Source: a virus. Taken from it: a stretch of DNA of 64,000 nucleotides. This document shows positions 5,001 through 22,211 of the stretch, piece by piece. The stretch's first letter is position 1, and the number at the start of each line of letters is the position of its first letter. The translations under genes were made by a program, and so were the position numbers. The notes below the pieces were generated by a model. It searched no databases. It was not told the origin of the DNA and saw only the letters and a program-made list of their open reading frames with translations. Location of the stretch: IMG/VR virus record IMGVR_UViG_3300025150_000004, positions 78,892-142,891 of that record; one strand, 5' to 3'.

Positions 5001-6471
5001 GGAGATCCAGAAGCACGTCCTGTTCGGTTGGTTGGGCGGGGACGGGACTCAGTCCCGGTTAGGGATCACGGGCAACACGGCGTCGTTCGATCTGATGAGC
5101 CAGATGCACGTTCTGGCTGCCCGGTGCGGTTGGTATAGTCGCAAGCAGGTCACGTTCGACCGTCGAGCCGCCATCTTGGACGAGGTGGTCAACGGTTCCG
5201 GTCCGGTGACGGTGCGAGATAGCAATGGATGGCTGCCTTCGTTCTCGTTGACCCTGCCCGAGCCTGCGGGCTTTGGTGGTGAGGTTAGGTTCACGGACCC
5301 CGAAAGCGCACGGGTCACGTTGTCGGGTGTCACGGACGGTTTCAAGCGGGTGGGCAACTACCTGTTGTACCGGGTCCGAGAGGCATGGAACGAGTGCTTC
5401 TCCGGGCAGGTCCACAACATCGAGGTCGCCAAAGACAAGAGCTACGTCGTGGAGGGCATGGCCGTCCACAACTGCCCGCACATCAAGTACCAGAAGGGCA
5501 ACACCTTCTTCGACGAGCAGGGTCGGCAGCACATCATCGCCGAGCTTTGCGGGCACGAGAGCCTCGACCCAACCGGCGGCGTCACCTTCATCGAGGCGTC
5601 GTGGGTTGAGACACCAGCCTTCACGGGAGCGGTCCTCCGCAACGTGATGGAGGCGACCGAGGAGACGGCCAAGAAGGCCGAGGCAGTTCTCAACTCCCCG
5701 CCCCCCCAGTGGTCCACCGCCGCCATGGCGAAGGCCGCAGGGATGACCAAGACGGGCGTGGGGATCGACGCCCTGGAGCGGGCGGCGCAGCAAGATGGCC
5801 GTGTCGTGGGCCGAGTAGCCCACGGTCCTCTGACTTCTCCCGAAGTCCTCTCTGTCGGGGCCAATCCTTCGATGGAGGCCGACCTGTTCCTGTCGGGATG
5901 GGACGAAGAGGACGACGAGGGGGCCGACGCCCCCGCTGCACCTCCGAAGGAGGAGGGCACCCCTCTCGAAGAGCTTCGCCAGGAGGTCAAGCAGCACCTC
6001 CTGAACGAGGTCAAGCGGGAGATCAAGGACGAGATGAGGAAGAAGGACGTGTCCGACCGCCTCGACTCCACGGCCCCCAACGACACGGTTCAGCATGAAG
6101 CTGATGGCCTCGGGACGCCCTCAAGATCCCGACAGCACGAGGCACGGGCCTACACGGCCGGGATCAACACCTTGGTCCGCACTGCTGCCTCGGACATCGA
6201 TCTGATGGAGGCGGTTGCCGCCTTCAACAGGGAGGCAGGGGTTTCGGTCCCTGTCCCGCTTTACCGGGCGGCCCTCAAGGTGGGGCCGTCTACCCAGTTC
6301 TCGGGGTCTTCGACATCCGAGTTCGTCCGGGCCTGCCACGCCGCTCTGGGACGGCAGCCCAACACCACTGAGGTTCGGGTCATGGCCCGTCTCAGCCATC
6401 TGCTGTCCCGTCGGACTTCGGCCCGCACGGGGAACCACAAGGCAGTCGCCACAGAAGGAGCGTTGACATGA
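2047..6471 (+). CDS. prohead (capsid maturation) protease precursor containing two inteins
   Basis: Spliced extein reads ...EH...KGRIIDA...SMGC-TVDGTICTKCG...CPH...FIEASWVETPAF, as in large-phage prohead proteases; lies upstream of scaffold and MCP. Confidence 0.8.
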   Translation: MAFMKYARAVVEHPHVSRREWGQIRTAGRSFGKVPSFARTRVKLARGSVPTNLVDQASTIFGDVFDPGQYLLTHATIVASVDVFQPQGIKLGSQLEGGFVVNRKYGDFRVEPRCAQFINNNRDAWTRGVLLKAFETFIGGHNFVEHVQIESMSKGRIIDAVARDIGDSVYIDILIATDRKHRDLVTAIENGKMGTLSMGCFLPGTQVTMADGRRIAIEDVQPGDMVLTHKGRAREVLNKQIKGGKWDMRTVHAVGLASPITSTGNHPYYVLRPAEVCACGCGESLPAYVSSAKKPTTRSLTRRFKVGHDKRVLNPNNTYSLDEFKRRKAQMDEIQNPELVKVRADELRVGDFIAFPRVKDGEHTLSVSDGKARLLGYFLAEGCFAKEKGRPVQVTFCFSMDEKSTFVAEVEGLLKQEFPDRRNEPWVQERVDSNNCMVHIRDPEVAAWFKEHGGEYSPGKRLSADAMNWSVESHKHLIGAWLNGDGHRAKAHGGFLVGTTVSLDLASQMHALMAKCGWFARFEARIGSKSVTVAEAINGGVAVRDEATGRLPAYLLTIGNTQSVELQGYCAKAPTTAKYSNQNNRTFEDWVVSPITAIEESTYEGWVHDMEVEEDHTYVAVGACVSNCTVDGTICTKCGHWAADETEMCFPTGTRILMADGKYVPIEEVVEGDLVVTHTGAIQPVLHTMGRHHDGNVTVLNVEGVPQPIRATTGHRFWVMRPETHCQCGCGQSFRRTVEHERGASQAFQRRFLPGHNSKVIPFPSGLFAPADSRNTGANLEFVPAKDIRKGDYLTFPIPQQVTASPEATEDKARLIGFFLAEGSFIKRDGVLVGVSFDFGAHEYGSLAVEVEDLLNKVWGRDERRTVDFDWRQKVASEGAKPIRRRKNSRPVPTDLTCPSCKAPSEYAYNVRFKKGQDDCYQCKVCNRQWVEGSDRAVRACRNLTGESACSVRLMCSEAAEWFHTFCGEYAHGKALAPEVMYWPQEIQKHVLFGWLGGDGTQSRLGITGNTASFDLMSQMHVLAARCGWYSRKQVTFDRRAAILDEVVNGSGPVTVRDSNGWLPSFSLTLPEPAGFGGEVRFTDPESARVTLSGVTDGFKRVGNYLLYRVREAWNECFSGQVHNIEVAKDKSYVVEGMAVHNCPHIKYQKGNTFFDEQGRQHIIAELCGHESLDPTGGVTFIEASWVETPAFTGAVLRNVMEATEETAKKAEAVLNSPPPQWSTAAMAKAAGMTKTGVGIDALERAAQQDGRVVGRVAHGPLTSPEVLSVGANPSMEADLFLSGWDEEDDEGADAPAAPPKEEGTPLEELRQEVKQHLLNEVKREIKDEMRKKDVSDRLDSTAPNDTVQHEADGLGTPSRSRQHEARAYTAGINTLVRTAASDIDLMEAVAAFNREAGVSVPVPLYRAALKVGPSTQFSGSSTSEFVRACHAALGRQPNTTEVRVMARLSHLLSRRTSARTGNHKAVATEGALT
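2644..3927 (+). mobile_element. intein 1 with LAGLIDADG homing endonuclease (428 aa)
   Basis: Starts CFLPGT, block B TGNHPY, LAGLIDADG-like LLGYFLAEG and LIGAWLNGDG, ends ...VHDMEVEEDHTYVAVGACVSN followed by Cys. Confidence 0.9.
3991..5472 (+). mobile_element. intein 2 with LAGLIDADG homing endonuclease (494 aa)
   Basis: Starts CFPTGT, block B TTGHRF, LIGFFLAEG and LFGWLGGDG, ends VHNIEVAKDKSYVVEGMAVHN followed by Cys. Confidence 0.92.
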
Positions 6472-8132
6472 GCACTCGCAACCGTTCGACGTGGGCGGCG
6501 GACAAGAAGGCAGGTCAGGCACCTGCGGTCCCCGGCTACGGATCCGAAGACCAGGACCACCCGGCTCACAAGCCGGAGCCCGGCTACGCCGACTACAAGA
6601 AGGGTGACCCGGACGCCTGGGCCGAGACGCCGAACCCGCCCCCGTACCCCGAGGGCAACCCGCCGTCCGTCCCCGGCTACGACACCGAGGATCAGGACCA
6701 CCCGGCCCACAAGAGGAACCCCCGGGTGGAGAAGCTGTCCTCGCTGGTGGAGAAGAAGGCCAAGAAGGCCCTCGTCATCGCCAGCCACATGCTGGGCAAG
6801 GAGGCCACCAAGGAGGCCGTCGAGCTTCAGGCTCTCGACCTCATGGACATGGACGATGCCGTGATGGAGGCGACCCTCAAGCGCCTCGGCGGCGGCTTCA
6901 TGGCCGACGACGACATGGACCCGATGTACGACATGGAGCCCGAACTCGACGAGGTCGAGCCCATGGCGTGCGGGGCCATGTACGGCCTCGAAGACATGGA
7001 GATGGAGGGGCCGATGGGCGTGTTCGCCAACGCCCTCAAGGCCATCGCCACCGACCTGAAGGCCCTCAAGGACGCCAACCAGAACCAGTACCCCGGCCCG
7101 ACGCTCGGGGGACCGGCGAAGGACGAGGCAGGTGCTCGGGCCGAGGCTTCCCAGGTCTCCGGCCTGGAGGCCAAGGCTCGTGCCGAGGGTGCCGCAGCGG
7201 CCAAGGGCGAGGTCCACGCCTCTGTCTTCGACGGCATGGACAAGGACCGGGACGGCTTCGTGACGGCCTCCGAGTTCACGGGCAGCAAGGCGATCTTCGC
7301 CGCCATCGACGTGGACGCCGACGGCATCATCTCCAAGTCCGAGTACGTCGCCGCCTTCTCGGCCACCGCCAAGAAGGCCGAGGACGACGAGGACGAGGAT
7401 GGCAAGGAGGCCGCCAAGAAGGCCGAGGACGACGAGGACGACAAGGGCAAGGAGGCCAAGAAGGCCGACGACGCCATGCTCGACCTCATGGCCAGCCTCT
7501 CCGACGACGAGATCGCCATGCTCCACCAGGCGTCCGAGGACGACAAGGAGAACGGCGACGACGAGGAGACCGCCGCCAAGAAGGCCGCTGCTCGACTCGC
7601 TCAGCTTCGGGCCGAGGCCGGGTGCGACAAGCTCCCGCCCGCCCTGAAGGAGAAGTGCGAGGAGAAGTCCGGCAAGGGCGACGACAAGGGCGACGACAAG
7701 GGCAAGGAGGCCGCCAAGAAGGCCGACGACGACGAGGACGAGGACGACGAGCCCGAGGACAAGGGCGAGGAGTCCGAGGGCGGTGACGAGGACGACGACA
7801 AGGAGGCCGCCAAGAAGGCCACCGAGGACGCCGCCTTCTTCGCCTCCACCGGGGACCCCATGGGCCTCGGCGGGGACCCGTCCCACGGTCTGAACCTCAC
7901 GGCCGAGGACGAGGCGGTGCTCAACGAGATCTTCGCCGCCGACGTGCCGAACACGGCGTCCGCCCTCCCGGGTGACGCCGTCGAGGCGGCCATGAAGCCC
8001 CAGCCGAAGCAGGCGAGCACCGGCTCGACCGCCCCGGTCGGCAACATGACCCGCACGGCCTCGGGCGGGATCTCGGACCTCTCCCAGCTTTGGGAGTCGG
8101 CTCCCGACGTGTCCAAGGTCTTCGGCGTCTGA
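6468..8132 (+). CDS. putative scaffolding / internal head protein, acidic, with an EF-hand pair
   Basis: Between protease and capsid genes; D/E/K-rich repeats (KEAAKKA); DKDRDGFVTASE and DVDADGIISKSE EF-hand loops. Confidence 0.7.
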   Translation: MSTRNRSTWAADKKAGQAPAVPGYGSEDQDHPAHKPEPGYADYKKGDPDAWAETPNPPPYPEGNPPSVPGYDTEDQDHPAHKRNPRVEKLSSLVEKKAKKALVIASHMLGKEATKEAVELQALDLMDMDDAVMEATLKRLGGGFMADDDMDPMYDMEPELDEVEPMACGAMYGLEDMEMEGPMGVFANALKAIATDLKALKDANQNQYPGPTLGGPAKDEAGARAEASQVSGLEAKARAEGAAAAKGEVHASVFDGMDKDRDGFVTASEFTGSKAIFAAIDVDADGIISKSEYVAAFSATAKKAEDDEDEDGKEAAKKAEDDEDDKGKEAKKADDAMLDLMASLSDDEIAMLHQASEDDKENGDDEETAAKKAAARLAQLRAEAGCDKLPPALKEKCEEKSGKGDDKGDDKGKEAAKKADDDEDEDDEPEDKGEESEGGDEDDDKEAAKKATEDAAFFASTGDPMGLGGDPSHGLNLTAEDEAVLNEIFAADVPNTASALPGDAVEAAMKPQPKQASTGSTAPVGNMTRTASGGISDLSQLWESAPDVSKVFGV

Positions 8133-9023: not shown

Positions 9024-9896
9024 ATGAGCGTTTCCAACGCAGTGAAGCAGCGGGTCATCGGCGAACTGATCCAGTCCCCCCAGGGACGGGCGAAGCTCGC
9101 CGCCTCGATGACCCAGCCCCTCCGCCTCCGCCGGGACTACGCCTCGGTCGGCCGCAAGACCTTCCTGGTCGAGCAGCTTCCCGATGGCGCACTTCCCATC
9201 TACGACAAGGACCCCGACGTGACGGCGTTCGTGGTCGGCGAAGAGGGCGAGAACATCCTGGCCGTCACCAAGCCGAGGCGGGTGATCTTCCCGCTGTTCG
9301 AGATCGCCAGCAACCCGGAGATCCCGCTGACCCAGATCAAGGAGCGGCGCTTCGACCTGATCGAGCGTGCCCAGGATCTCGGCCGGGCTCAGGTGCAGGC
9401 GGCCGAGGACGAGCGGGTGTTCGCCACCCTCGACGCCATGGCGACGGCGGGCTTCGACTCCCTCCCGGGCCAGACCAACGCCGACATCCCGGTGATCGCT
9501 CCGATCTCGGGTGCGGTGCTGGCCGACGCCTTCTCCCTCGTGGAGCGGCACGACCTGCGGGTGGCTCGGGTGTACATGAACGCCCGGGACTTCGCCGACA
9601 TCCGCAAGTTCGGGCGGAACATCCTCGACATCGAGACCCAGGCCACCCTGCTCAAGACGGGCCTCATGGGCGTGCTGTACGGCGCTCAGATCGTCGTGAG
9701 CCGCCTGGTGCCGGTGGGCACGGTCTACGTCTGCTGCGAACCCGAGCACTTCGGCCGCATCCCGGTCCGTACCGAACTGACGGTGCTCTCCGCCGACGAC
9801 CCGAAGGCCCGCACCATCGGCTTCTCGATCTTCGAGAACCTGGGCATCGGGGCCTTCAACCCCCGGGGCCTCGCCCGTCTCACGGTCAACCGCTAA
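9024..9896 (+). CDS. major capsid protein (HK97 fold)
   Basis: GRAKLAASMTQPLR..RDY.SVGRK.FLVEQLPDGALPIYDKD signature recognised from large-phage MCPs; AGGAG RBS; strongly biased codons; gene order. Confidence 0.88.
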   Translation: MSVSNAVKQRVIGELIQSPQGRAKLAASMTQPLRLRRDYASVGRKTFLVEQLPDGALPIYDKDPDVTAFVVGEEGENILAVTKPRRVIFPLFEIASNPEIPLTQIKERRFDLIERAQDLGRAQVQAAEDERVFATLDAMATAGFDSLPGQTNADIPVIAPISGAVLADAFSLVERHDLRVARVYMNARDFADIRKFGRNILDIETQATLLKTGLMGVLYGAQIVVSRLVPVGTVYVCCEPEHFGRIPVRTELTVLSADDPKARTIGFSIFENLGIGAFNPRGLARLTVNR

Positions 9897-10035: not shown

Positions 10036-12000
10036 GTGTTTACATTTGAAGTCAGAGAGGTTGAAGTGGTGGAACTGTCGTCTGAACTCCTTCGGGAGTT
10101 GTACCTGGAACAACGGTTGTCCGAGGCTCTTATCGCAGAGCGGTTTGGAACCTACCAGGTGAAGATCGGCAGGCTGAGGAAAAAGTGGGGAATCCCCACC
10201 CTCTCCAAAACCGAGAGGGTCGCAGGTGCTTTACCTGATCTCACCGAACAGCAACGGGAACTCATTATGGGCTCGTTACTTGGTGACGGCTGGATGCGGG
10301 CCAGCAGTGAACTGGCCGCAGGGTTTGGCGAAGGCCATGCCGTTTCCCAGTCTGCTTACACGGATTGGAAAGCTGATTTACTTGAGCCGTTCACCCGCTC
10401 CAGATATCACGGGAAAAAGACAGACGGGGAAACGGGCAAGGTCTATCACAGTTGGTCTTTTGCGACGGCCTGTTGTACCCAGATTCGTCCTTATTATGAC
10501 CTTTTCTACCCCTCTCCAGCCCGTAAACGGCGTTTCCCTCCGAATCTGCCTGATTTAATGACCCCGTTTATGCTGGCTGTTTGGTACATGGATGATGGGA
10601 ACCTAACGGAGCGAAATGAGCCCAGAATCGCTTTTGGTTTGGATGACCGGAGTTTGTATCGGGGGCTGAAGGCTTTGTCGAAGCTCGGTCTCAAGCCCAG
10701 GGTCTACGGTCAGGGTTCCGATCAGGCCATCCATTTTCCCAAGCAGAGGATGAAGTTCCGAGCCCTCATCGAGACTTACGTCCCTGAGTGCATGACCCAC
10801 AAACTCCCGATCGAAACTGATCGTCAGGCTGGCGATCGGAGAGCCAGGGTTTTGACGTTGGATAAGGCAGCGCATCTCTACCGGGGCGGTCTCAGTGCGG
10901 AAGCGATAGCACAGGTCTACGGGGTCGGGACCTCCACCGTGAGCCGCCGCCTGAAAGATGCTGGGGTGCAGAAGCGCCGATCAGGCCCTCACTCGAAGAA
11001 GTTGACCCGGGAGGCTGCTGAGGCTGTGCTGGGGTCCTTCGACCCATCTCGGTGGTCTACCTTGACTGAGCAAGAGCAGGATCGGTGGGTAAGGGAAGCG
11101 TTCCAGGTGTTACGGACGCTAGGGTTCCCATTTCCGAAGCAGGGTTCGGTTTCCATTGCTAAGGAGTTGTCTAAGGTCAGGGAATCCCAGATGTTCCTGG
11201 AAGATAGTCGTATCATGCCGGTACGACGGGTAGGGATCGGACTCTGCAAAGAGTTTTTCCCCAACCGGTACCGGGCCGTTTCGATGACCAAAGCCGTATC
11301 GGCTTGGGAATCCTGGCATCGGGATTCTGACCTTAAGCGGGCTGTTCGCTTTCAGTTCAAGGTGGGGGACCCAGTGCTTCCTCATCGGGTACTCCGGGCG
11401 GTGACCATGAATTGTCGGACGCCAACCGTATTTCGTCCGACCGTGGCCCGGTTCATCTATGAGAGATTCCTGGAGCCGGGTCAGGTGACCTGGGACCCTT
11501 GTTCTGGGTATGGGGGTCGTCTGTTAGGTGCTGTGGCTGCCGGAGTCCGGTACGTTTCGACCGATGTTGACCCGGAGACCGTGGAGGGGAACTTGGCTCT
11601 AGCCAAGGCTTTGGGGGCGGATGTGTCAGTGATCTGCTGTCCGGCCGAGGCGTCAGACCCGCCACCTGTGAATTTGGTTTTCACGTCTCCGCCATATTTT
11701 CATCAGGAGCAGTACGAGGGTGGCTCGCAGTCGTGGAAGAAATATCCTGGGTTTGATATTTGGGTAGATGGTTTTCTACGGCCGATGGTCGAGAAAGGAG
11801 CCAAGGTTCTCCTTCCTGGTGGTCATTGGGTGATGAACATTGCCGATGTGAAAAACCGGAAGGGGTCGTTCCCGTTGGTGGTTGCCGCTCGTCAGGTCAT
11901 GTCCGAGGTGGGGTTAACAGAGATGTCGATGTTGAAAATACCATTACCTTCGCTGAACCGGAAAGACCCCTGGGAGCCGGTCTTGGTGTTTCGGCGGTAG
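10036..12000 (+). CDS. fusion of LAGLIDADG endonuclease, HTH and amino (N4-C/N6-A) DNA methyltransferase
   Basis: IMGSLLGDG and LAVWYMDDG (LAGLIDADG_2 type); HTH IAQVYGVGTSTVSRRL; MTase motif I WDPCSGYGG and motif IV TSPPY; lower GC than flanks; true start may be a later GTG. Confidence 0.85.
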   Translation: MFTFEVREVEVVELSSELLRELYLEQRLSEALIAERFGTYQVKIGRLRKKWGIPTLSKTERVAGALPDLTEQQRELIMGSLLGDGWMRASSELAAGFGEGHAVSQSAYTDWKADLLEPFTRSRYHGKKTDGETGKVYHSWSFATACCTQIRPYYDLFYPSPARKRRFPPNLPDLMTPFMLAVWYMDDGNLTERNEPRIAFGLDDRSLYRGLKALSKLGLKPRVYGQGSDQAIHFPKQRMKFRALIETYVPECMTHKLPIETDRQAGDRRARVLTLDKAAHLYRGGLSAEAIAQVYGVGTSTVSRRLKDAGVQKRRSGPHSKKLTREAAEAVLGSFDPSRWSTLTEQEQDRWVREAFQVLRTLGFPFPKQGSVSIAKELSKVRESQMFLEDSRIMPVRRVGIGLCKEFFPNRYRAVSMTKAVSAWESWHRDSDLKRAVRFQFKVGDPVLPHRVLRAVTMNCRTPTVFRPTVARFIYERFLEPGQVTWDPCSGYGGRLLGAVAAGVRYVSTDVDPETVEGNLALAKALGADVSVICCPAEASDPPPVNLVFTSPPYFHQEQYEGGSQSWKKYPGFDIWVDGFLRPMVEKGAKVLLPGGHWVMNIADVKNRKGSFPLVVAARQVMSEVGLTEMSMLKIPLPSLNRKDPWEPVLVFRR

Positions 12001-13117: not shown

Positions 13118-14602
13118 TCAGGGCAGCGGGGCGTGCAGCACTGCGACGAGGCCACGGTCGTGGTCGTGCAGGTACACGGGGAGGGACTTCGCTGCCCCGA
13201 CGTAACCGTTGAGCGAGTGCCAACGGTCGGTCCCCGAGAGGGAGGGGATCTGGCGGCGAGTGACGCCGTAGGCCACGTCGGTCTCCGTCCTCTCGAAGTG
13301 CATGTGACCCGTGTAGATGGTCTTGTGCGGGCACTGCGACCAGTGCTTCGACGCCTCCCGGGCCATGAGCCCCGCCATGTCCTGGGTCTTCTTCACCCCG
13401 TCGCCGTGGACGAACCCGATGAGGTTCTGCCCGTAGACCCGGTAGACCCTGGGAGTTCGGTCGAGGTGGACCTCAACATCCGGGGCGTCACGGAACAGGG
13501 CGTCCAGGTAGAGCAGCAAGGCCAGGCCCAGCATCCGGTCGTGGTTGCCGGACATGAGGACCAACTCCACCGGGGCCACCTGGCGGAGGGTGTGGATCCA
13601 GTCCTCCATCAGCTTGCAGGCGGACACGAGGATCTCCGCCGGGGTTCCATCCATGTCCTGCATGGTTCCCTCGGTCGTCGTGCCCTTCTGGTTGTCGATG
13701 TGCAGGAAGTCCGACCCGATGGGGACGTACAGCTTCTCCGGCCGCCCCAGTCGGGCCACCTGGGCGAACACGTCCTCGGTGGCCTGGAAGAGGCGGTGCT
13801 CGGCGATCTGCCGGTTGTAGGGCTCGCCCACCTCGTCGGCATCGCCGTACTTGCCCCAGTGGAAGTCGGTGAAGCCGACGACCCCAGCGAAGGGGCTGTC
13901 CGGCTCCGCAAGTCGGAGCTTCGGGACCTGGACGACCTTCCGGTTCTTCAACCCCTCACGAAGGGTCCGCAGAAGATGGTCCTCGACCTCCCGCCATTTC
14001 ATGGCGTCCTGGCGGATGTCGGCCCACTTGGCCTGCTCCATCTTCTTGTAGAGCGTGGCCCGGCGAAGCTGGAGAGCATCCTCGACCAGTTCATCGTCGG
14101 TGCGGGACATCACCTCCTCGGTCGAGAAGGGCTCCATGTCGTGGGTGATGCCGTGGACCTTGAGGTACTTGACGACCCAGGGGCGGGGGAGCCGCACGGT
14201 ACGGGCGATCTCGTTGACGGTCGCCGGGTTCCCGTCGAAGTTGCTGTAGGCCCGAACCATCTCCCTGTGGACCTCGCCCGGGAGCACCAGCGGCTTCGGG
14301 AGACCTGGGACGAAGGTGACGTAGGTGTCATTGTCCGGGTTGTAGACGTACTGCTTGTCGTAGAGGTACTGGGACGCCTCCTGCTCGGTGGGCTCGGCGG
14401 CGGAGGGCTCGACCTCGACCTCGGAGGGCTCTGCCGGATCGGGGTCTGGGAGTTCGGAGAGGTCGCCACGGCGGCAGTAGGCAGCGAGGGCCTTTGCGTG
14501 GGCGAGAGGGAGTCCGGTCATCGCCACGATGCGGGCGCTGGACAGCTTCCCTCGGGTGATCCGCTCGCTGTAGAGCGAGGCGTACTCTTCCAACCAGGTC
14601 AT
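13118..14602 (-). CDS. calcineurin-like metallophosphoesterase with N-terminal extension
   Basis: DFHWG, GSDFLH, GNHD, HGD, GHMH motifs in order. Confidence 0.85.
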   Translation of the reverse strand: MTWLEEYASLYSERITRGKLSSARIVAMTGLPLAHAKALAAYCRRGDLSELPDPDPAEPSEVEVEPSAAEPTEQEASQYLYDKQYVYNPDNDTYVTFVPGLPKPLVLPGEVHREMVRAYSNFDGNPATVNEIARTVRLPRPWVVKYLKVHGITHDMEPFSTEEVMSRTDDELVEDALQLRRATLYKKMEQAKWADIRQDAMKWREVEDHLLRTLREGLKNRKVVQVPKLRLAEPDSPFAGVVGFTDFHWGKYGDADEVGEPYNRQIAEHRLFQATEDVFAQVARLGRPEKLYVPIGSDFLHIDNQKGTTTEGTMQDMDGTPAEILVSACKLMEDWIHTLRQVAPVELVLMSGNHDRMLGLALLLYLDALFRDAPDVEVHLDRTPRVYRVYGQNLIGFVHGDGVKKTQDMAGLMAREASKHWSQCPHKTIYTGHMHFERTETDVAYGVTRRQIPSLSGTDRWHSLNGYVGAAKSLPVYLHDHDRGLVAVLHAPLP

Positions 14603-14688
14603 GCTCGGCCTCCTTCGGCTGTTGGCCAGCACATGAAGGAACGGTCAGACAGCAGGCCGAGCAGAGCTTGGGAGGCCGGGGCCTCTTG

Positions 14689-14718
14689 CTAATAGAGAGT
14701 CGGGATAGGCTCGCAACC
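14689..14718 (-). promoter_or_regulatory. putative late promoter
   Basis: GGT-tgcgagcc-TAT-N12-TTAG on minus strand. Confidence 0.6.
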
Positions 14719-14803
14719 GAAAGGAGTGCTGTTGTGAGGGGGTAGAGCGGCCCTTGGCGTGGGGTAGATGGGGAGGACAGCACGACCCCGAACGGAGGGA
14801 AAC

Positions 14804-15985
14804 ATGAGCGACGGGTTCACGTTCCACGGCTTCCAGCGAGGCCCCCAGATCTACGCCACACGGCACACCATCCTCCTTCTCCTGGCTCTCAACGACATCT
14901 GGAAGCAGGAGAAGGCGAAGTACCAGTTCACCGGAGGCTTCGACCCGGCGAGGCACTTCCACAAGCCGACCCTGCTCGCTGACCTGGCCAGAGCCATCGC
15001 CCCGGTCATCAAGAAGGTGCTGACCCCAGGGGACGTGTACGCCCACCTGCTCTACCTGTCCGAGCGGAAGCTCGGGTCGGACACGGTGATGGTGCGGAAC
15101 CATCCCGGCAACGAGAAGGCCGGGGAGCCCATTTTCCAGATGGGCAAGGCGGGCGAGGAACTCTGCGACATCATCGACAACCGTGGCGTCCGGGCGTTCA
15201 TCGAGAGCGACCCCACCAACTGGCACGCCCTGGTGATGTACGCCCGCCTCGTGGAGTCCGGCCAGTGCAGCCCGTCCGTCTGGACGCCGGAGAACATCGG
15301 CAGCCTGACCGGCCTCACGGAGAGCCAGATCCGCAAGGCGATCAAAACCCTCCAGCAGGGGTTCACGAGCAAGGCCGGGGACCAGGAGTTCACGCTCGCT
15401 GCCGGGTCTCTCGTGGTGGAGGGGACCCGTCGTTTCCCGAAGTACAAGCTGGCTGCGAGCCTGCGGGTCTCCGCCAGCCCCGAGATCGGTGACCTCGACT
15501 TCGAGGAGGACCCGAAGGCCCTCCGTCAGAAGGCCCAGACGGCGACGTTCCAGCAGATCTACGGCGGGAAGGGGCCACAGGGGAACGGCCGGGCGGCAGC
15601 AGCGGCGGACGCCTTCATGGAGGAGTTCACCAAGCCCGAGGCCGACCCCGAGCCGACCCCCAGCGTTCCCGCATCCCGGCCCATCGGAGCCAAGGCCAAC
15701 ATCTCCGACCAGGAAGTGGCCATCCTCCAGGCGGAGGCGATCCGACTCCGCATCTCGCTCGACTCCCTCATGACCCTCATCATCAAGACGGGCATCGAGG
15801 GCATCGAACGGGAGAACGTCAACCGGGAGACGGCCGAGGCCAAGCGTCGGGAGGCCGAGGAGGCCCTGCGGAAGGAGGAGGAGGAGGCCCAGCGTGCGGC
15901 TCAGGCAGCAGCCGAGCGGCTGGCCGAGATCCAGCGGCGGCGGGCCGCCCTGGGGTCCGAGACAGGCGCATCACCGGCCCCCTAG
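14804..15985 (+). CDS. hypothetical DNA-binding protein (possible HTH, C-terminal ribbon-helix-helix-like segment and coiled coil)
   Basis: GGAGG RBS; IGSLTGLTESQIRKAIKTL HTH-like; ANISDQEVAILQAEAIRLRISLDSLMTLII. Confidence 0.65.
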   Translation: MSDGFTFHGFQRGPQIYATRHTILLLLALNDIWKQEKAKYQFTGGFDPARHFHKPTLLADLARAIAPVIKKVLTPGDVYAHLLYLSERKLGSDTVMVRNHPGNEKAGEPIFQMGKAGEELCDIIDNRGVRAFIESDPTNWHALVMYARLVESGQCSPSVWTPENIGSLTGLTESQIRKAIKTLQQGFTSKAGDQEFTLAAGSLVVEGTRRFPKYKLAASLRVSASPEIGDLDFEEDPKALRQKAQTATFQQIYGGKGPQGNGRAAAAADAFMEEFTKPEADPEPTPSVPASRPIGAKANISDQEVAILQAEAIRLRISLDSLMTLIIKTGIEGIERENVNRETAEAKRREAEEALRKEEEEAQRAAQAAAERLAEIQRRRAALGSETGASPAP

Positions 15986-16012
15986 AAAAACGACTCGGGT
16001 CGAAAAAAGTTG

Positions 16013-16041
16013 TTGACGGCGGATCCGGGTTCAAGTACAAC
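16013..16041 (+). promoter_or_regulatory. sigma70-type promoter
   Basis: TTGACG-17 bp-TACAAC with an upstream A-tract (UP-element-like). Confidence 0.75.
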
Positions 16042-16046
16042 GTCTC

Positions 16047-16480
16047 TTGCCGGTTGGGACTGCCCCCGAGAAATCGAGGATGGTTCCCAAACGGAGCACC
16101 GAGGGTCGAAGGTTCGCAACCTGAAACCGGAGGTGAGTGGGAGGTCGGGCGAAGGCCATTCCCACGGAAGGCGCTGACCATTCAGGTGGTCATGGGCTTC
16201 ACCTGAAAAGGAAGTCCTGGGTTCTGAAACATGGACCCGAACCCCATGGCGGGGAAGATAGCGAGCGCCGCTATCGTTCTCACCCGCCTTCGCAGAGGTC
16301 AACCGGGCAATCGGCGAGCCAAAGCGACCCTGCCCTCCCCGGGCAACCGGGAGAGGGAGCCAGTCGGGTAACCGGGTGGTGGGACGGGGGAACTCAAGGA
16401 CCCGTAACAGGGTCCAGCGGTTCAGCAATGCCCAGCGGGTCCGGCCGTCTTCGGCCGGACCCGCTGGGCATTCTTGTTTT
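16047..16480 (+). ncRNA. unclassified structured ncRNA (~430 nt)
   Basis: Own promoter and terminator; about 11 consecutive hairpins, several with GNRA tetraloops; no credible ORF. Confidence 0.75.
16427..16480 (+). terminator. intrinsic terminator
   Basis: aatgcccagcgggtccggccg / cggccggacccgctgggcatt followed by cttgtttt. Confidence 0.85.
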
Positions 16481-16555
16481 AGGACCCCGGAAAAGGTCTA
16501 CTGTCCTCGGTATCGTGACGCCAGCCCTTTCGGCTCCACGAGAATGAGGCGAAGA

Positions 16556-16795
16556 ATGCCGACCATCCGGCGACTGGACGTTCCCATCATCCTGGGTTGT
16601 CAACCCCCGGCAGGTCAATTCGCCAATGCGTTTCGAATCCTGAACGCCGACTCGGGCTGCGTGCTGGAGTTCCTGGTGTACTCCCCTCGTGAGAACAAGG
16701 CATTCCTCGTTCATCGCATCCGGCTCTCCCAAGAACTCCTTCCCGTCATCAAAGACCAGGTGAGGTGCGCTTTGGACCCCCAACACGCTTGTTGA
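16556..16795 (+). CDS. small DUF3467-like protein
   Basis: FANAFRI...VLEF...VHRIRL pattern; paralog of 27391..27657. Confidence 0.5.
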   Translation: MPTIRRLDVPIILGCQPPAGQFANAFRILNADSGCVLEFLVYSPRENKAFLVHRIRLSQELLPVIKDQVRCALDPQHAC

Positions 16796-16832
16796 TCGGG
16801 GCATGGGTAGAGTGTGGAGCTACGGAGGTTTG

Positions 16833-18143
16833 ATGATGACGACGTTCCAGACCGGCCAGTTTCAGCCCCTCAAGGCCATCTCGGAGTTCAACTTCGGTCC
16901 CCTGAACGGGATGACCATCAAGGATGGAACCGAGATGGACTTCGACGGCACCACCCTGCGGATGATGGGGAAGGAGTACGGCTGCCCGGAGTTCTCCATC
17001 GCCATCCGGGCCGGATTCGTGAAACCCCGCTCCGACACCACTTCGGCTCCGCCGAAGCCCACCTCCAACGTGGAGGTGAAGTCGGCGGTCGGCCACGGGG
17101 AGACCCGAGAGACGGTCCGTATGGGGGCCATCGTCGAGGAGGAGCAGGTCGTCGGCTCCGTGGCTGGGAGCAAGGGCCGCCGAGAAGCCGCCCAAGACGC
17201 CCGGTCCCAGCAGGTGACCAGCCAGCCGCAGGTGAGCCCGGACCCGGAGATCGAGGCAGCCCTGATGCCGCAGGCTCCTCCTCCACCTCGGCAACTGGAC
17301 CCCAGGGATGTGACCTCTGCCTCCGTCGCCGCCCAGTCCATGCAGGGGAATCGGCCCCGGACGGTGGAGGAGGCCGACGCCCTCAACGCCGCCGCCATCC
17401 AGGCGGAGTTGAACAAGCCCGTGAACACCAACTACATCAAGGGCGGCACCCGGCACGACAAGCTGGATGAAGATGATGCCGCCCCGACCGTCGGGGGTGG
17501 CAAGTTCAAGCTCGTGACCGCCGACGGGGCGAGCCAGGGGACCGTGGTGGGATCGGTGAAGTCCGGGGCGCACTCCGCCCGAGTCGGTCGGGACGGGGAG
17601 GCCGTGAAGACGGCCGCCTTGGACGTGACCAAGGCGACGGCCAGCACGGTCGAGTCGGGGCTTCAGGAGCAGAAGGTGGTCGAGGGGGTTCGAGGACTCG
17701 AAGCCAAGACCCGTGCGGTGCCGTCGGGCATCCAGAAGGTCGGGGCTCAGGTGATGCCGGAGCGCCCGGACATCATGGTCCAGCCCATCAAGACGGCCCA
17801 TTCCACGGTCATCACCGAGGGTGAAGACATCCGCACGGTCGGTGCCCAGGGGCAGACGGGGGATGTGTCAGAGAGCCGGTCCGGGGACGAACTGACCGAT
17901 CTCCTGCCCGACGCCATCGTGGCGTCTCCCCCCAAGCCGAAGAAGTCCAACCCCGACGACGAGGTCGCCGAGATCGTGGCGGGCTGGGACAAGCAGCGGC
18001 AGTGGAAAAAGCGGGTCAACGAGGCCGTGGAGTTCTACGCCGACTGGCCCGCCGCCCTGGACGCCATCTGCGCCATCGAGTCCGAGGCTGTGGTCAAGCA
18101 CATCCGCAGCCAGGTCGCCAAGAAGCAGGCCGAGAGCGCCTGA
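16833..18143 (+). CDS. hypothetical protein, largely low-complexity
   Basis: GGAGG RBS, long ORF with typical codon usage. Confidence 0.75.
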   Translation: MMTTFQTGQFQPLKAISEFNFGPLNGMTIKDGTEMDFDGTTLRMMGKEYGCPEFSIAIRAGFVKPRSDTTSAPPKPTSNVEVKSAVGHGETRETVRMGAIVEEEQVVGSVAGSKGRREAAQDARSQQVTSQPQVSPDPEIEAALMPQAPPPPRQLDPRDVTSASVAAQSMQGNRPRTVEEADALNAAAIQAELNKPVNTNYIKGGTRHDKLDEDDAAPTVGGGKFKLVTADGASQGTVVGSVKSGAHSARVGRDGEAVKTAALDVTKATASTVESGLQEQKVVEGVRGLEAKTRAVPSGIQKVGAQVMPERPDIMVQPIKTAHSTVITEGEDIRTVGAQGQTGDVSESRSGDELTDLLPDAIVASPPKPKKSNPDDEVAEIVAGWDKQRQWKKRVNEAVEFYADWPAALDAICAIESEAVVKHIRSQVAKKQAESA

Positions 18144-18620: not shown

Positions 18621-21538
18621 CCCGGCAGGCCGACAAGTTCCCGGCCTTGGGGCTTCCATCGGAAGCGGGACCCTGTTTCGTAGTCCGGCGGATCGAGGAC
18701 AACGTCCGCTCCCCCTCAGTTCGGGACACCTTGGAGAGGAAGGTCGAGCGAGGCCAAGACCTGACGAATCCCGAGGCCCATGCGGTGTACGACCGGGAGG
18801 TCGAACGGGGTCCCGGCGGTCTCATCTCGAAGTTCGAGATCTCGTCTCACGCCCAGTACCGGATGGACCTGCGGGGCATCACGGTCCCCGAGGTCCGCTT
18901 CGTGTTCCAGCGGTTCCAGAAGGAACTCAATGACTGGAAGTCCCGACAGGATCCCGCCTACGACAGGGTGGCTCGGGCAATCCAGCGAGGGGAGCCCATC
19001 GAGTACGAGGACAAGCGGCTCCAGATGTTCATTGCCTTCACCATCCTCCAGAAGGGCTTGGCGAAGGTAATCACGGTCTACTGGAAGGGAATGCCAGACC
19101 CCAAGGCTCCAGGGGTCTGTGTGGTCCCGCACAGCCACCAGAAGCACGCACGGGACCCGGTGCAGGACTGGGGCACCCAGACATACACCAAGGACCCGAC
19201 GGACAACCCGGACAACCGGGAGAAGCAGCAGGTGCTACCGACCCCGCCGTGGAGTCGGAGCAAGCCGACGGGGAGGCCCCAGTACAACGTCCCAGGACCC
19301 AGTGGCACTGGGCCAGGCGAGAAGAACATCCACCAGTACCGTATGCGGACCAAGGGGGAGCCGGGGAAGGAGCACCCCCAACCACCGGCTCGAACCTCCC
19401 CTGTTCGGCGGCCGGAGGTGACCGGCGAGGACTGGGAGACGGCTGGTTGGTATGACCGGCTCGACCCACAGGTGGAGGAGCCTTTCCTCGAAGCCTCAAT
19501 GAAGGGCAAGCCGTATCCTGGGGCGAACCGGCAGAGGGAGCAGCGAGGCCCCGCTCGAAGGTATTACCGGCTTCGGTACAAGCGTCAGCGTCAGCAGTAC
19601 AAGCGGCGGATGAAGCTGTGGTATCGGCGCTATCGCAAGAACCCCAGGTATTTGAGGGACCAGGAGCGCCGGGACGATCACCCGAAGAGGTTCGAGCGCA
19701 AGCCCGGCGGCGGCTACGTGCGGAACCAGGACCGAAGCAAGGCTTGGCGGGACAAGCAGAAGAAGGCCAGCTTGGCAGAGCCCATCCCTGTGTTCTTCCT
19801 CCCGTTGCAGGAGTGGGGGTGGTTCGAGGGTGTCGGCGACGAAGACCTGATGGAGATCCGTGTTGATGGGAGCCTGTTCCAGCTTCCCATTGACCTGTTC
19901 TTCGACCAGGTGGAGGGCGACCCGGACATGGCGGATGCCCTCTTGGCCTACCTCGACGAGCACTACGAGTTCTCCGAGGGTGAAGGTGAGGACATGGCCA
20001 TCGACGACGCAATCGAGGCTCTCAAGAAGATCGCTTTCCAGGTGAAGCTCCGCTACCGGCCCGAGAAGCGCCAGCGGAAGACCCGTGGATTGAAGAAGTG
20101 GAAGCAGAAGATGCAGTACATGCGGAACCGGGCGAAGTCCAAGCGACAGACCCGGGTCCGGTACAAGCGTCTCAAGAGGCTCCCGGCCTTCAAGAAGCAG
20201 CAGCAGATCCGCCGCAAGCACCCAGAGAGGTTCAAGCGGCGGATGGCCGAGGTGCTCACCGCCCCGGACATCGCTTTCGTGGTGGGTGAGGAACTGGACC
20301 TGGGGTACGTCCACAGCGTCAGCCCCATGACCGGGCTCGTGACGTTCCATCGGACCTCGAACGGGGAGTACCTCTCCGACTCTCTGGAGTCCCTGGCAGT
20401 CGAGGATTTCATGGCGGCCGTCGGCTTCCTCTCGGAGGCCGACGAGGAGGCCATGTTCAAGCTCATCGACGTGGAACTGGGAGAGACGGCCTGGTCCGGT
20501 GAGTTGACCGAGGACGGTCTTCGTGGGTCAGCGGCCCTCATGGGCATCGACTGCGATTCCCCGAAGTTCCAAGACCTCTGCGAGAAGCTGGTCGGCAAGA
20601 CCCAGATCGCCGACATGGACCCAACCGAAGTCGCCCTGGTGAACTCGGTGGTCATCCATCAGACGGTCTATGACGACGATGCGATGGAGGTTGGAGAGTT
20701 CCCCGACCGGGACCGGGCAAAGGAGCCGACCGAGGCCGACTCTTTCATGATCGACCCCCAGGACGACGACTACATCTTCGGCAGGGTCAACCTCCCCGAG
20801 GACTACGCTCACCTGGTTCAGCGGACGGCTCGGCGGTGGGTCGCCCGGCAGGCGGAGATGCTCTATTGCAAGGAGCCCACCGACCAGGATTCGGACGACA
20901 CCTACGACCGTGGGGATGACAGGCTGGAGAAGAAGGTCCATCCGCCTCACTCCGAGCGCCTCGACCAGCCCTCCGTGGAGGAGAACCCGGGTTCGGCCAA
21001 GGTCATCCCGTGGAACCATCCCGACATGGTGAACAACCGGGCGGGGATGGTGCGCCTGGCGGCCCGCATCCACGAGATCGTGGAGAAGTGCGGGGAGGAT
21101 GTCTTGACCCGCTCAAGGGGGCTTCGTGTGAAGCTCCGCCGGGTGGATGCACGGAACGCTGTGTGGCTGTTCGACGTGCCCGGGAAGTCCGGCACCCATC
21201 GGGTGCGGATCAAGGCTGTTCGTCACGGCAACATTCGGGACGTGGGCAAGGCCCACGTCAAGGTGTCCTGCTCCTGCCCGTTCTGGCAGTGGCAGGGGCC
21301 GGAGCATCACGCCAAGACGGGGGATTACCTGTTCGGGAGCCCGAGGGGCACGGCTGCCAAGCCGGATGTGAAGGACCCCGGCGGGAAGCACGGGGCCTGC
21401 AAACATGTTTTGGCTTGCTTTGATTGGGTTATAGGCCACAACTGGCGGGTTCCCCCAAGACCACGGAAGCGGGCGTCAACAGATCGAGTAGTTGCACAGT
21501 TCCTTCGGCGGCAGCTTCAGGAGGCGTGGTGTGGCTAG
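18617..21538 (+). CDS. multidomain protein: DUF4258/RelE-like domain, two Arg/Lys/Tyr-rich tracts, C-terminal SWIM zinc finger
   Basis: ISSHAQYRMDLRGIT...KVITVYW; RRYYRLRYKRQRQQYKRR; VSCSCPFW...GACKH. Confidence 0.75.
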   Translation: MTRQADKFPALGLPSEAGPCFVVRRIEDNVRSPSVRDTLERKVERGQDLTNPEAHAVYDREVERGPGGLISKFEISSHAQYRMDLRGITVPEVRFVFQRFQKELNDWKSRQDPAYDRVARAIQRGEPIEYEDKRLQMFIAFTILQKGLAKVITVYWKGMPDPKAPGVCVVPHSHQKHARDPVQDWGTQTYTKDPTDNPDNREKQQVLPTPPWSRSKPTGRPQYNVPGPSGTGPGEKNIHQYRMRTKGEPGKEHPQPPARTSPVRRPEVTGEDWETAGWYDRLDPQVEEPFLEASMKGKPYPGANRQREQRGPARRYYRLRYKRQRQQYKRRMKLWYRRYRKNPRYLRDQERRDDHPKRFERKPGGGYVRNQDRSKAWRDKQKKASLAEPIPVFFLPLQEWGWFEGVGDEDLMEIRVDGSLFQLPIDLFFDQVEGDPDMADALLAYLDEHYEFSEGEGEDMAIDDAIEALKKIAFQVKLRYRPEKRQRKTRGLKKWKQKMQYMRNRAKSKRQTRVRYKRLKRLPAFKKQQQIRRKHPERFKRRMAEVLTAPDIAFVVGEELDLGYVHSVSPMTGLVTFHRTSNGEYLSDSLESLAVEDFMAAVGFLSEADEEAMFKLIDVELGETAWSGELTEDGLRGSAALMGIDCDSPKFQDLCEKLVGKTQIADMDPTEVALVNSVVIHQTVYDDDAMEVGEFPDRDRAKEPTEADSFMIDPQDDDYIFGRVNLPEDYAHLVQRTARRWVARQAEMLYCKEPTDQDSDDTYDRGDDRLEKKVHPPHSERLDQPSVEENPGSAKVIPWNHPDMVNNRAGMVRLAARIHEIVEKCGEDVLTRSRGLRVKLRRVDARNAVWLFDVPGKSGTHRVRIKAVRHGNIRDVGKAHVKVSCSCPFWQWQGPEHHAKTGDYLFGSPRGTAAKPDVKDPGGKHGACKHVLACFDWVIGHNWRVPPRPRKRASTDRVVAQFLRRQLQEAWCG

Positions 21539-22211
21539 GTCTGTTTGTATTTTGACCTGCCCTTGTTGCGGTCAAGGGTTCCTTCGGCGGCAGAGCATCG
21601 TAGTGGCCATGCAGAAGCGAAATCCCGACGTGGTATTGTCCTGCGGCAAGGCGTGTAGTGACATGCTGAAGCGGCGTCCTATCAACATCATGGACCGCAA
21701 AGCATTTGAGTACACCGTTGGCGTGGTACTTGGGGATGGATCGGTAGATCGGGCCGTGAGGGTGGCCGTTGGTCTTCAGGACGAAAATTTTGTGCCTATT
21801 TTGCGTCAGTTCTTCCAACGGGGAGTTGGGGTAGACCCTGGTGTGCTGCGGAATGAAGAAGCAAGATCTTTGTCTGTGAACCTGAGCTTCAAGGCGGCTG
21901 GCGACCTTTATCGGTCGTTCAAGCATGGCCCTTCATGGATACTGGAAGATGTGCGCCACCCGGCGATGGTGTTGGCCGGGTTGTGCGATACGGACGGGGG
22001 GTGGGAGAAAAAGAAAGGGCGGCGGGTCGCTTTTTGCATCACGCAGAAGAACAACGGGAATCTGGAGAAGTCCCTACCCCTATGGTATCAAGTCGGGCTG
22101 AACCCGTCGATTAGGTATTACGCTCCTGACCGGGCGGTACTTCGGATACCCTCTCCTCAACGTGAGCGGTTCCTTGATGTCGTCTCGCTCCAGCACCCCA
22201 GGAAAATCTGA
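21531..22211 (+). CDS. free-standing LAGLIDADG homing endonuclease with N-terminal zinc finger
   Basis: YTVGVVLGDG and LAGLCDTDG motifs; CPCCG...CGKAC; lower GC. Confidence 0.8.
   Translation: MARSVCILTCPCCGQGFLRRQSIVVAMQKRNPDVVLSCGKACSDMLKRRPINIMDRKAFEYTVGVVLGDGSVDRAVRVAVGLQDENFVPILRQFFQRGVGVDPGVLRNEEARSLSVNLSFKAAGDLYRSFKHGPSWILEDVRHPAMVLAGLCDTDGGWEKKKGRRVAFCITQKNNGNLEKSLPLWYQVGLNPSIRYYAPDRAVLRIPSPQRERFLDVVSLQHPRKI

Follow-up and report, generated by a model that had tools for sequence, protein, structure and literature searches.

A 64,000-nucleotide stretch of phage DNA (the window), the final 64 kb of the 142,891-bp IMG/VR virus record IMGVR_UViG_3300025150_000004, carries on its plus strand, at positions 16013–16480, what is very probably a genuine new structured-RNA gene. 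The locus is a conserved, self-contained non-coding unit with an elaborate covarying fold and tertiary-contact motifs, and it forms an accessory cassette. The RNA matches no described RNA family. It is probably a discrete, trans-acting, large ornate RNA that shares its cassette with the gene of a 79-residue protein and serves as a binding platform or a decoy. The record has a CheckV completeness of only 27% at 143 kb and is therefore considered to be a fragment of a huge phage; the G+C content of the window is about 64%. A preliminary description, drawn from the nucleotide sequence alone, had proposed a stand-alone large structured RNA at this place. Its control signals and helices are now found to be conserved, with compensatory changes, in eight lineages.

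A conserved, self-contained non-coding transcription unit

Seven other sequence-distinct homologues were recovered, together with near-identical copies, which makes eight lineages with the window. They originate from groundwater or aquifers, from marine samples (Tara Oceans) and from other metagenomes, and all lie behind the same phage gene, which encodes a 405-residue protein (14768–15985, plus strand, with its own stop codon at 15985) and directly precedes the RNA. The gaps behind this gene can be aligned at the nucleotide level. With nhmmer, full-length copies were found in the loci designated L003, L004 (identical in L005 and in L088, from Tara), L007/L008 and L010. The copy in L196 is almost complete, and those in L006 and L011 are 5′ halves. 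The RNA is single-copy in the 143-kb record.

The stretch 15986–16555 does not code for protein. The G+C content at third codon positions (GC3), about 0.9 in the flanking genes, is flat at 0.5–0.78 across 15980–16560. Substitutions between the window and its homologues are even over the three phase positions, with no 3-nt periodicity; insertions and deletions among the homologues are mostly of 1–2 nt; and neither strand has a frame that remains open throughout the homologues. In none of the source assemblies did the gene callers place a gene in the gap. The earlier statement that there is no credible open reading frame (ORF) is thus borne out by the flat GC3, the lack of codon periodicity and the short indels, and the opposite case, that of homologues conserving a reading frame, is contradicted by the lack of any frame open throughout.

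Upstream, a σ70-type promoter occupies 16013–16041, with TTGACG at 16013–16018 and TACAAC at 16036–16041 separated by a 17-nt spacer. Nine of the aligned sequences extend to the promoter. Among them, GTTGAC does not vary, the spacer has a length of exactly 17 nt while its letters differ, and the −10 box reads TACAAC, TACAAT, TATAAC or CATAAT, so that the boxes and spacing first noted in the window are kept in 9/9. An A-tract (16003–16008) resembling an UP element is located just 5′ of the −35 box. The A-rich run stops 2–4 nt before GTTGAC in all nine sequences, and it may well function as an UP element. The combination GTTGAC-N16–19-TAYAAY occurs nowhere else in the 143-kb record. A consensus promoter scanner made no call at TTGACG-17-TACAAC, because it demands T at the last position of the −10 box. 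Transcription would start at about 16047–16049.

Downstream, the unit is closed by an intrinsic terminator (16428–16481, plus strand). It consists of a 20-bp G+C-rich stem (16428–16471) with a UCUU loop and a U-rich tail, the sequence right after the stem being TTCTTGTTTT. The preliminary description had placed a stem of about 20 bp with a U-tract here, and terminators are found in all six homologues that reach the 3′ end. Their stems are of 12–21 bp, G+C-rich and perfect or nearly so, and are followed by a U-rich tail. As the stem sequence of the window/L003 group is unlike that of the L004 clade, it is the terminator function, and not the sequence, that is kept. The transcript would measure about 430 nt, with a folded body of about 380 nt between promoter and terminator. 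Comparison of the homologous sequences shows the locus to be a self-contained, conserved transcription unit.

Fold and candidate tertiary contacts

The fold was derived by folding each homologue domain by domain, and the same architecture was obtained in all. It comprises about 14 conserved helices, most of them with compensatory changes. The fold of the window RNA has a stability z-score of −8.8 when the terminator is included and of −4.7 when the body is taken by itself, none of 100 shuffled sequences being as stable in either case. The minus strand yields z = −5.5. The many conserved G–U pairs, such as the invariant G–U of P6, fit the plus strand alone.

RNAalifold returned 92 pairs, 34 of them with compensatory change. 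In a MAFFT alignment, which was not fitted to the structure, 93% of the cells pair and 31 of 90 pairs are changed on both sides, compared with 13.3 ± 2.3 in column shuffles (0/500), a statistic inflated by the relatedness of the sequences, as five of the eight lineages are close kin. When the partners were slid by 1–3 columns, a control that preserves relatedness, 4–11 double-change pairs were counted and the separation was still clean. The homologue search and covariation analysis suggested with the preliminary description therefore came out in favour of the RNA. As MAFFT had placed several helices one column out of register, the sequences were realigned with three covariance models (R1–R3); these alignments lean towards the structure from which the models were built.

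The 5′ domain (16050–16165) contains three hairpins, P1 (16050–16094), P2 (16097–16135) and P3 (16137–16165). The tip of P1 varies in length and keeps a GNRA cap (GAAA 16070–16073 in the window); L006 has lost the tip, and a new GAAA cap sits directly on its stem. The loop of P3 is GGGYGAA. With model R3 (alignment A10), 92.5% of the cells of this domain are paired, and 11 pairs show double changes, compared with 4.7 ± 1.5 in shuffles (0/500) and 0–4 with slid partners.

The central domain (16168–16245) is a four-way junction closed by P4 (16168–16171/16242–16245), from which P5 (16174–16193), P6 (16194–16217) and P7 (16219–16238) emanate. With model R2 (alignment A9), double changes affect 22 of 45 pairs, compared with 10.5 in shuffles (0/500). 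Covarying pairs number 7/7 in P5, 3/7 in P6 and 4/6 in P7, and P4 is nearly invariant. The 3′ strand of P6, a covarying local hairpin, is GGAAGUCC in the window and reads GGGUGUCC in relatives. P5 and P6 follow each other without a linker in 8/8 sequences, and their loops are complementary: UUCAGG (16181–16186) of L5 can pair with CCUGAA (16202–16207) of L6. The complementarity extends over 5–6 bp in all eight sequences, with 93% of the cells paired. L6 of L006 has G in place of U, but L5 there contains one C more, and 6 bp with a single bulge are thereby re-established. A kissing pairing of L5 and L6, within one molecule or between molecules, is consistent with these comparisons but not proven by them.

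The junction is followed by P8 (16248–16289), a long hairpin with an internal loop and an AGCGC pentaloop (16264–16268). Double changes are present in 5/6 outer and 3/9 inner pairs, and the loop keeps the palindrome GCGC in 7/8 sequences. The 3′ domain (16291–16423) begins with P9 (16291–16327). P10 (16328–16330/16381–16383) closes a three-way junction that encloses P11 and P12, and P13/P14 (16390–16423) complete the body. In the R1 alignment (A8), 93.4% of the cells are paired and 0–3 double-change pairs remain when the partners are slid; P12 is the best-supported helix of the domain. For P13, inspection by eye shows covariation when the window is compared with the L004 clade, and the model-fitted alignment contains no double change.

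GNRA tetraloops are located in P9 (16307–16310), P11 (GCAA, 16343–16346) and P12 (GUAA, 16368–16371), in addition to P1. In these four hairpins the loop stays GNRA while its letters change (GCAA, GUAA, GCGA, GUGA, GAAA, GGAA), the exception being the P11 loop of L003, which has six nucleotides. Such conservation of the GNRA class with variable letters is typical of tertiary-docking loops.

All the helices listed in the preliminary description exist in the window, and all but one are kept in the homologues. The one that is not is the inner pairing cct-GAAA-agg, which can form in the window and lies in the loop of P6. The tertiary folding then proposed agrees with the conserved GNRA loops and the L5:L6 complementarity. 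The TTCAGG loop at 16181–16186 had been matched to two copies of CCTGAA: that at 16202 is conserved, and that at 16120 is complementary in the window and is not conserved, so that the switch envisaged with the latter has no counterpart in relatives. Two further pairings were superseded by local hairpins. A long-range helix from RNAalifold (alignment columns 275–279 with 376–380) gave way to the hairpin P9c, CCGG-GNRA-CCGG, and P13 likewise took the place of a helix between AGUC at the 5′ end and the 3′ tail. The comparative structure contains no helix joining the 5′ end of the RNA to its 3′ end.

Distribution, the co-inherited small gene and the neighbourhood

The family of the 405-residue protein includes eight other clusters at the 90%-identity level, which are 44–60% identical to the window protein. 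Gaps and gene order were recorded in all contigs whose downstream side was covered by usable sequence or gene calls, gene tables alone being used for several contigs of the P0006, P0007 and P0009 lineages. The 405-residue gene is followed on its 3′ side by a gene-free gap of 527–578 nt, a gene of 77–88 codons (called as 116 residues in L010, where an upstream start was chosen) and a gene of 420–450 codons. Wherever the downstream side can be checked, both the RNA and the small gene are present (8/8 lineages), in the same order and on the same strand in every lineage. Two loci with distant relatives of the 405-residue gene, L089 and L090, keep the flanking gene order; the next gene follows after 47 nt in L089 (1733–1781) and after 206 nt in L090 (2715–2922). 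Both lack the small gene, and none of the three RNA covariance models matches them. Because these two loci keep the flanking genes without either element, the RNA and the 79-residue gene are, as judged from gene order, an accessory insertion of about 800 bp in one subclade, placed in an otherwise continuous operon.

The RNA was sought in larger collections. A blastn search of the locus at a distant setting against 50,697 GenBank phages gave no match. Scans of an IMG/VR collection, which may omit the record of the window itself, with the two flanking proteins, an alignment of the 405-residue family and two RNA motifs yielded chance matches alone, none confirmed by nhmmer. In GTDB genomes, the P8 motif matched 101 stretches, all of them local chance matches, and the small-protein alignment matched none. 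The only locus retrieved by a scan of JGI metagenomes has the same sequence as the Tara copy. The stretch is contained in five DNA runs from groundwater or aquifers; the four that were examined gave low-depth contigs identical to the window and added no variation. The spread of the RNA thus appears narrow, within a small clade of huge, high-G+C environmental phages.

Between the terminator and the small gene lies a spacer (16482–16555, plus strand) with a small variable hairpin, an invariant CCTCGGTAT at 16505–16513 and, as ribosome-binding site, GAGG. The window shares this conserved block with L003, L004, L007, L010 and L196. The CCTCGGTAT element could be a promoter or an element of the 5′ untranslated region. 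It was also considered as a repeated phage promoter, and its count in the genome equals the chance expectation; its pairing with ACCGAGG of P2 is specific to the window, and it has no complement in the conserved part of the RNA.

The 79-residue gene (16556–16795, plus strand) begins 75 nt downstream of the RNA, and a weak GC3 signal fits its frame. The protein is conserved at 52–66% identity in five loci, and its family consists of six clusters among 5.8 billion proteins, all from these phages. Three strands and a helix are predicted (predicted local distance difference test score, pLDDT, of 68). By language-model features (0.87 against DUF3467 clusters) and predicted fold only (template-modelling score, TM, of 0.75, and of 0.54 in a second structure search), the protein appears DUF3467-like. 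Even at E ≤ 10, Pfam gave no match, whether for five family members or in a six-frame search of the phage's own record; the DUF3467 hidden Markov model (PF11950), which has a 25-bit cut-off, is thus not matched. The literature holds nothing published on the function of DUF3467. The protein has no sequence match in the PDB and no PHROGs or Pfam family. The top Foldseek matches are to folds of the Pur-alpha, PC4 and Whirly types and are weak (E ≥ 0.16), as are those from VIA-align (Z < 5) and BFVD (E ≥ 0.05). A small-protein relative with 44% identity is encoded among tightly packed genes in L091 (IMGVR_UViG_3300009320_000027, 48 kb, 11% complete), which is probably another huge-phage fragment.

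On the plus strand, the row consists of the 405-residue gene, the RNA, the small gene and then genes for proteins of 446, 135 and 973 residues. For the 405-residue protein, domains resembling winged helices in tandem are predicted, along with a middle region that is disordered and a C-terminal helix of 70 residues. The best matches in the PDB, to proteins of the YceH, ScpB and RPC62 types, are weak (E ≥ 5e-3); judged from these predictions, the protein may bind nucleic acid. In the 446-residue neighbour, searches for protein families and features found nothing recognisable. A DUF5658 gene is near the RNA locus. An exonuclease (phrog_704, E = 6e-50) is encoded on the minus strand at 13118–14632, where it overlaps a plus-strand ORF at 13133–14692. 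The minus strand is the one called at this locus in all relatives; by this comparison the minus-strand ORF is the real gene and the other a high-G+C shadow.

The major head protein (9024–9896; phrog_2522, E = 1e-51) lies about 6 kb upstream of the RNA locus. Further upstream, a 1474-residue ORF (2047–6471) has several Hint/intein and LAGLIDADG_3 matches, and is by these matches an intein-bearing protein of the structural module. The 554-residue protein encoded 3′ of it (6468–8132) has a canonical pair of EF-hands (PF00036, E = 6.5e-9), which is unusual for a phage structural module. Two ORFs for LAGLIDADG homing endonucleases are present, at 10036–12000 and 21492–22211, the first in a stretch of low G+C content (0.55) and with helix-turn-helix and N6/N4-methylase fragments.

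Known RNA families, possible roles and significance

Rfam 15 contains 4227 models, including ROOL, GOLLD, OLE, HEARO, raiA, RNase P, transfer-messenger RNA (tmRNA), signal recognition particle (SRP) RNA, 6S RNA and group I/II introns, and also covers packaging RNA (pRNA) and riboswitches. No family matched at the gathering thresholds over the whole 64-kb window. With permissive filters (E ≤ 10), the stretch 15900–16650 gave short matches far below threshold, mostly on the terminator hairpin, the best of which scored 23 bits against a gathering score of 80. The RNA regions of L003, L004, L007 and L010 gave nothing at E ≤ 0.1, and ARAGORN detected no tRNA and no tmRNA in the window. Rfam and ARAGORN thus agree with the preliminary description, which could not match the RNA to tmRNA, RNase P, SRP RNA, 6S RNA or an intron. 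Its suggestion of a sponge for CsrA, of the CsrB/RsmZ type, was not upheld: just one single-stranded GGA is conserved (ACGGA, between P1 and P2), and the other GGA or GGAG motifs are inside conserved helices or specific to the window. In a published catalogue of structured-RNA candidates from IMG/VR, the elements average 67 nt (PMC10690425).

It is proposed that host RNA polymerase would transcribe the RNA as a discrete, stable molecule, that the L5:L6 contact and A-minor docking of the GNRA loops would compact it into a particle, and that this particle would act in trans, as a binding platform or decoy and not as a message, leader or intron. If this reading is correct, the partner might be the co-inherited small protein or, just as tentatively, a host factor; further copies of the RNA itself are a slightly fainter prospect. 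These grades are a rough division within the favoured reading.

Several points weigh against this reading. No transcript has been observed, and the runs listed with the sequence are DNA runs, with no RNA run among them. In most lineages the −10 box ends in C (TACAAC) and not in the canonical T, and use of the promoter by host σ70 is for this reason only inferred from its sequence. The shuffle counts overstate significance, the lineages of distinct sequence being few (eight) and related (five are close kin). The 3′ domain taken alone is marginal, with 7 double-change pairs against 4.8 ± 1.4 in shuffles (52/500). P4, P10 and the P9c stem never vary and are hence unproven by covariation. The L5:L6 pairing is without a clean double change, three of its six pairs never varying. 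L091 encodes a relative of the small protein, and the RNA was not detected in the 48 kb of that record. A cis role is conceivable as well, since the RNA shares its strand with the small gene and a long operon and lies immediately 5′ of them.

The closest known kind of RNA is that of ROOL (RF03087) and GOLLD (RF01998), large ornate RNAs of phages and prophages; the new RNA is of the same kind, not of the same family. Like them, it is phage-borne, stands alone, has no ORF, and has many helices, multi-way junctions and complementary loops; it has the attributes of the kind, being a stand-alone non-coding RNA gene of more than 300 nt with covarying helices and tertiary motifs. It differs from them in having no similarity in sequence or to their covariance models, in its shorter body (about 380 nt, compared with about 580–660 nt and more than 800 nt), and in its setting, which is not beside tRNA genes and is in high-G+C huge phages from groundwater and sea water, and also in host range. 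ROOL and GOLLD are reported to assemble into cages made of RNA alone, held together by kissing loops and A-minor interactions (bioRxiv 10.1101/2024.12.08.627333).

It is conceivable, though doubtful, that the new RNA likewise assembles with itself into a ring, chain or cage, as do ROOL, GOLLD, OLE or the pRNA of phi29. Such assembly would rely on pairing of L5 with L6 in trans, on the palindromic GCGC loop of P8 and on bridges of the GNRA/A-minor type. Two hairpins joined without a linker carry complementary 6-nt loops, GCGC is conserved in 7/8 sequences, there are four conserved GNRA loops and no long-range closing helix, and phage-borne ornate RNAs are reported to form RNA-only assemblies by kissing loops and A-minor interactions, part of which had at first been taken for tertiary ones (bioRxiv 10.1101/2024.12.08.627333). 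However, no covariation tells a cis from a trans contact, and a four-way junction allows its adjacent arms to dock with each other in a single molecule, as they do in the hairpin ribozyme and the lysine riboswitch. The RNA is also smaller than ROOL and GOLLD, is not recognised by the Rfam models of either and lacks adjacent tRNA genes. The more specific proposal of a self-assembling ring or cage, which would be a third architecture unrelated to those of ROOL and GOLLD and perhaps loaded with the small protein, is less likely again; in it, L5 and L6 would pair between molecules ‘hand in hand’, like the loops of phi29 pRNA, with the P8 GCGC loop and GNRA bridges as further contacts. Phi29-type pRNA (RF00044) is also a structured phage RNA with a host-type promoter and complementary loops on neighbouring junction hairpins, and the new gene is likewise near head genes. 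The pRNA model does not match, though, the new RNA is more than twice as long, nothing ties it to the portal or terminase, and it is dispensable, since related phages with the same gene order lack it.

Equally doubtful is a functional pair of RNA and protein, in which the RNA would bind, store or neutralise the 79-residue protein, either as the scaffold of a ribonucleoprotein (RNP) or in the layout of a type III toxin–antitoxin system. The two elements are gained or lost together (eight lineages with both, L089 and L090 with neither), in constant order and strand and with a conserved spacer. Type III loci of the ToxIN type have the order promoter, RNA, terminator and gene, and the new locus follows this order with its RNA and small gene on the same strand, as an accessory phage cassette. 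On the other hand, co-occurrence may stem from a single ancestral insertion. The new RNA is one complex fold and not a series of the short tandem repeats that type III antitoxins have; Tandem Repeats Finder detected no array in 15900–16900 even at a minimum score of 30. The protein falls neither into a nuclease family nor into a known family of RNA-binding proteins, its matches to other folds are weak, and its homologue in L091 sits among packed genes, the RNA being undetected in the 48 kb of that record.

A cis-acting leader, riboswitch or attenuator, which would control read-through into the small gene and the 446/135/973-residue operon, is unlikely. The RNA is immediately 5′ of these genes on their strand, and a conserved element lies between terminator and start codon. 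As the insertion puts a terminator inside an operon that is continuous in L089 and L090, some read-through or a new promoter is needed. Lysine, cobalamin and T-box leaders also combine a multi-helix junction, a loop–loop contact between neighbouring arms, a terminator and a gene. The new RNA, however, is about twice their size, has no Rfam match and looks self-contained; with about 380 nt and some 14 helices it is far larger than known leaders, and no cis-regulatory model matches it. When the partners of the 5′ strand of the terminator were compared in six homologues, no conserved antiterminator was found: the best partners lie at body positions 263, 180, 189, 144, 309 and 83, which are not homologous, and form gapped duplexes. 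The apparent antiterminator of the window, GGACCCG present in both P14 and the terminator, is not conserved. A riboswitch-type platform is disfavoured by this lack of a conserved alternative partner, and also by the terminator stems, which are long (12–21 bp) and perfect or nearly so.

It is very unlikely that the RNA is a diverged RNase P, group I or II intron, tmRNA, SRP or 6S RNA, or a new putative ribozyme. Its size, multi-junction architecture and GNRA loops do resemble those of large ribozymes, and the inteins and homing endonucleases of the genome make mobile or processing RNAs plausible. No Rfam score rises above noise in the window and four homologous loci, however. A tRNA-like or tmRNA nature is countered by the negative ARAGORN result and the lack of a helix between the 5′ and 3′ ends. 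RNaseP_bact and RNaseP_arch do not match, the lone hit, of 9.8 bits, falling on the terminator loop. No intron model matches, the flanking ORFs are complete with their own stops and starts, and the element is equipped with a conserved promoter and terminator of its own, which would be superfluous for an intron. The last alternative, that there is no RNA gene but a protein-coding one (a 148-residue minus-strand ORF at 15982–16428) or chance structure in G+C-rich DNA, can practically be dismissed: the window does have a minus-strand frame of 147 open codons, and the homologous frames have just one or two stops, but that frame is interrupted in every homologue, there are frame-breaking indels, GC3 signal and codon periodicity are lacking, the gene callers leave the gap empty, and the compensatory changes and G–U pairs fit the plus strand.

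To our knowledge, natural RNAs longer than 300 nt whose elaborate folds are conserved make up only about a dozen known classes. Ribozymes, cores of RNPs and, as recently reported, RNA-only assemblies account for nearly all of these, and each new class of this size has opened new biology or structural principles. With a defined promoter and terminator, a testable secondary structure and eight natural variants, the RNA is ready for in vitro transcription, probing and cryo-electron microscopy. Its presence means that huge phages of oligotrophic groundwater and of the ocean carry accessory RNA genes beyond tRNAs and tmRNAs.

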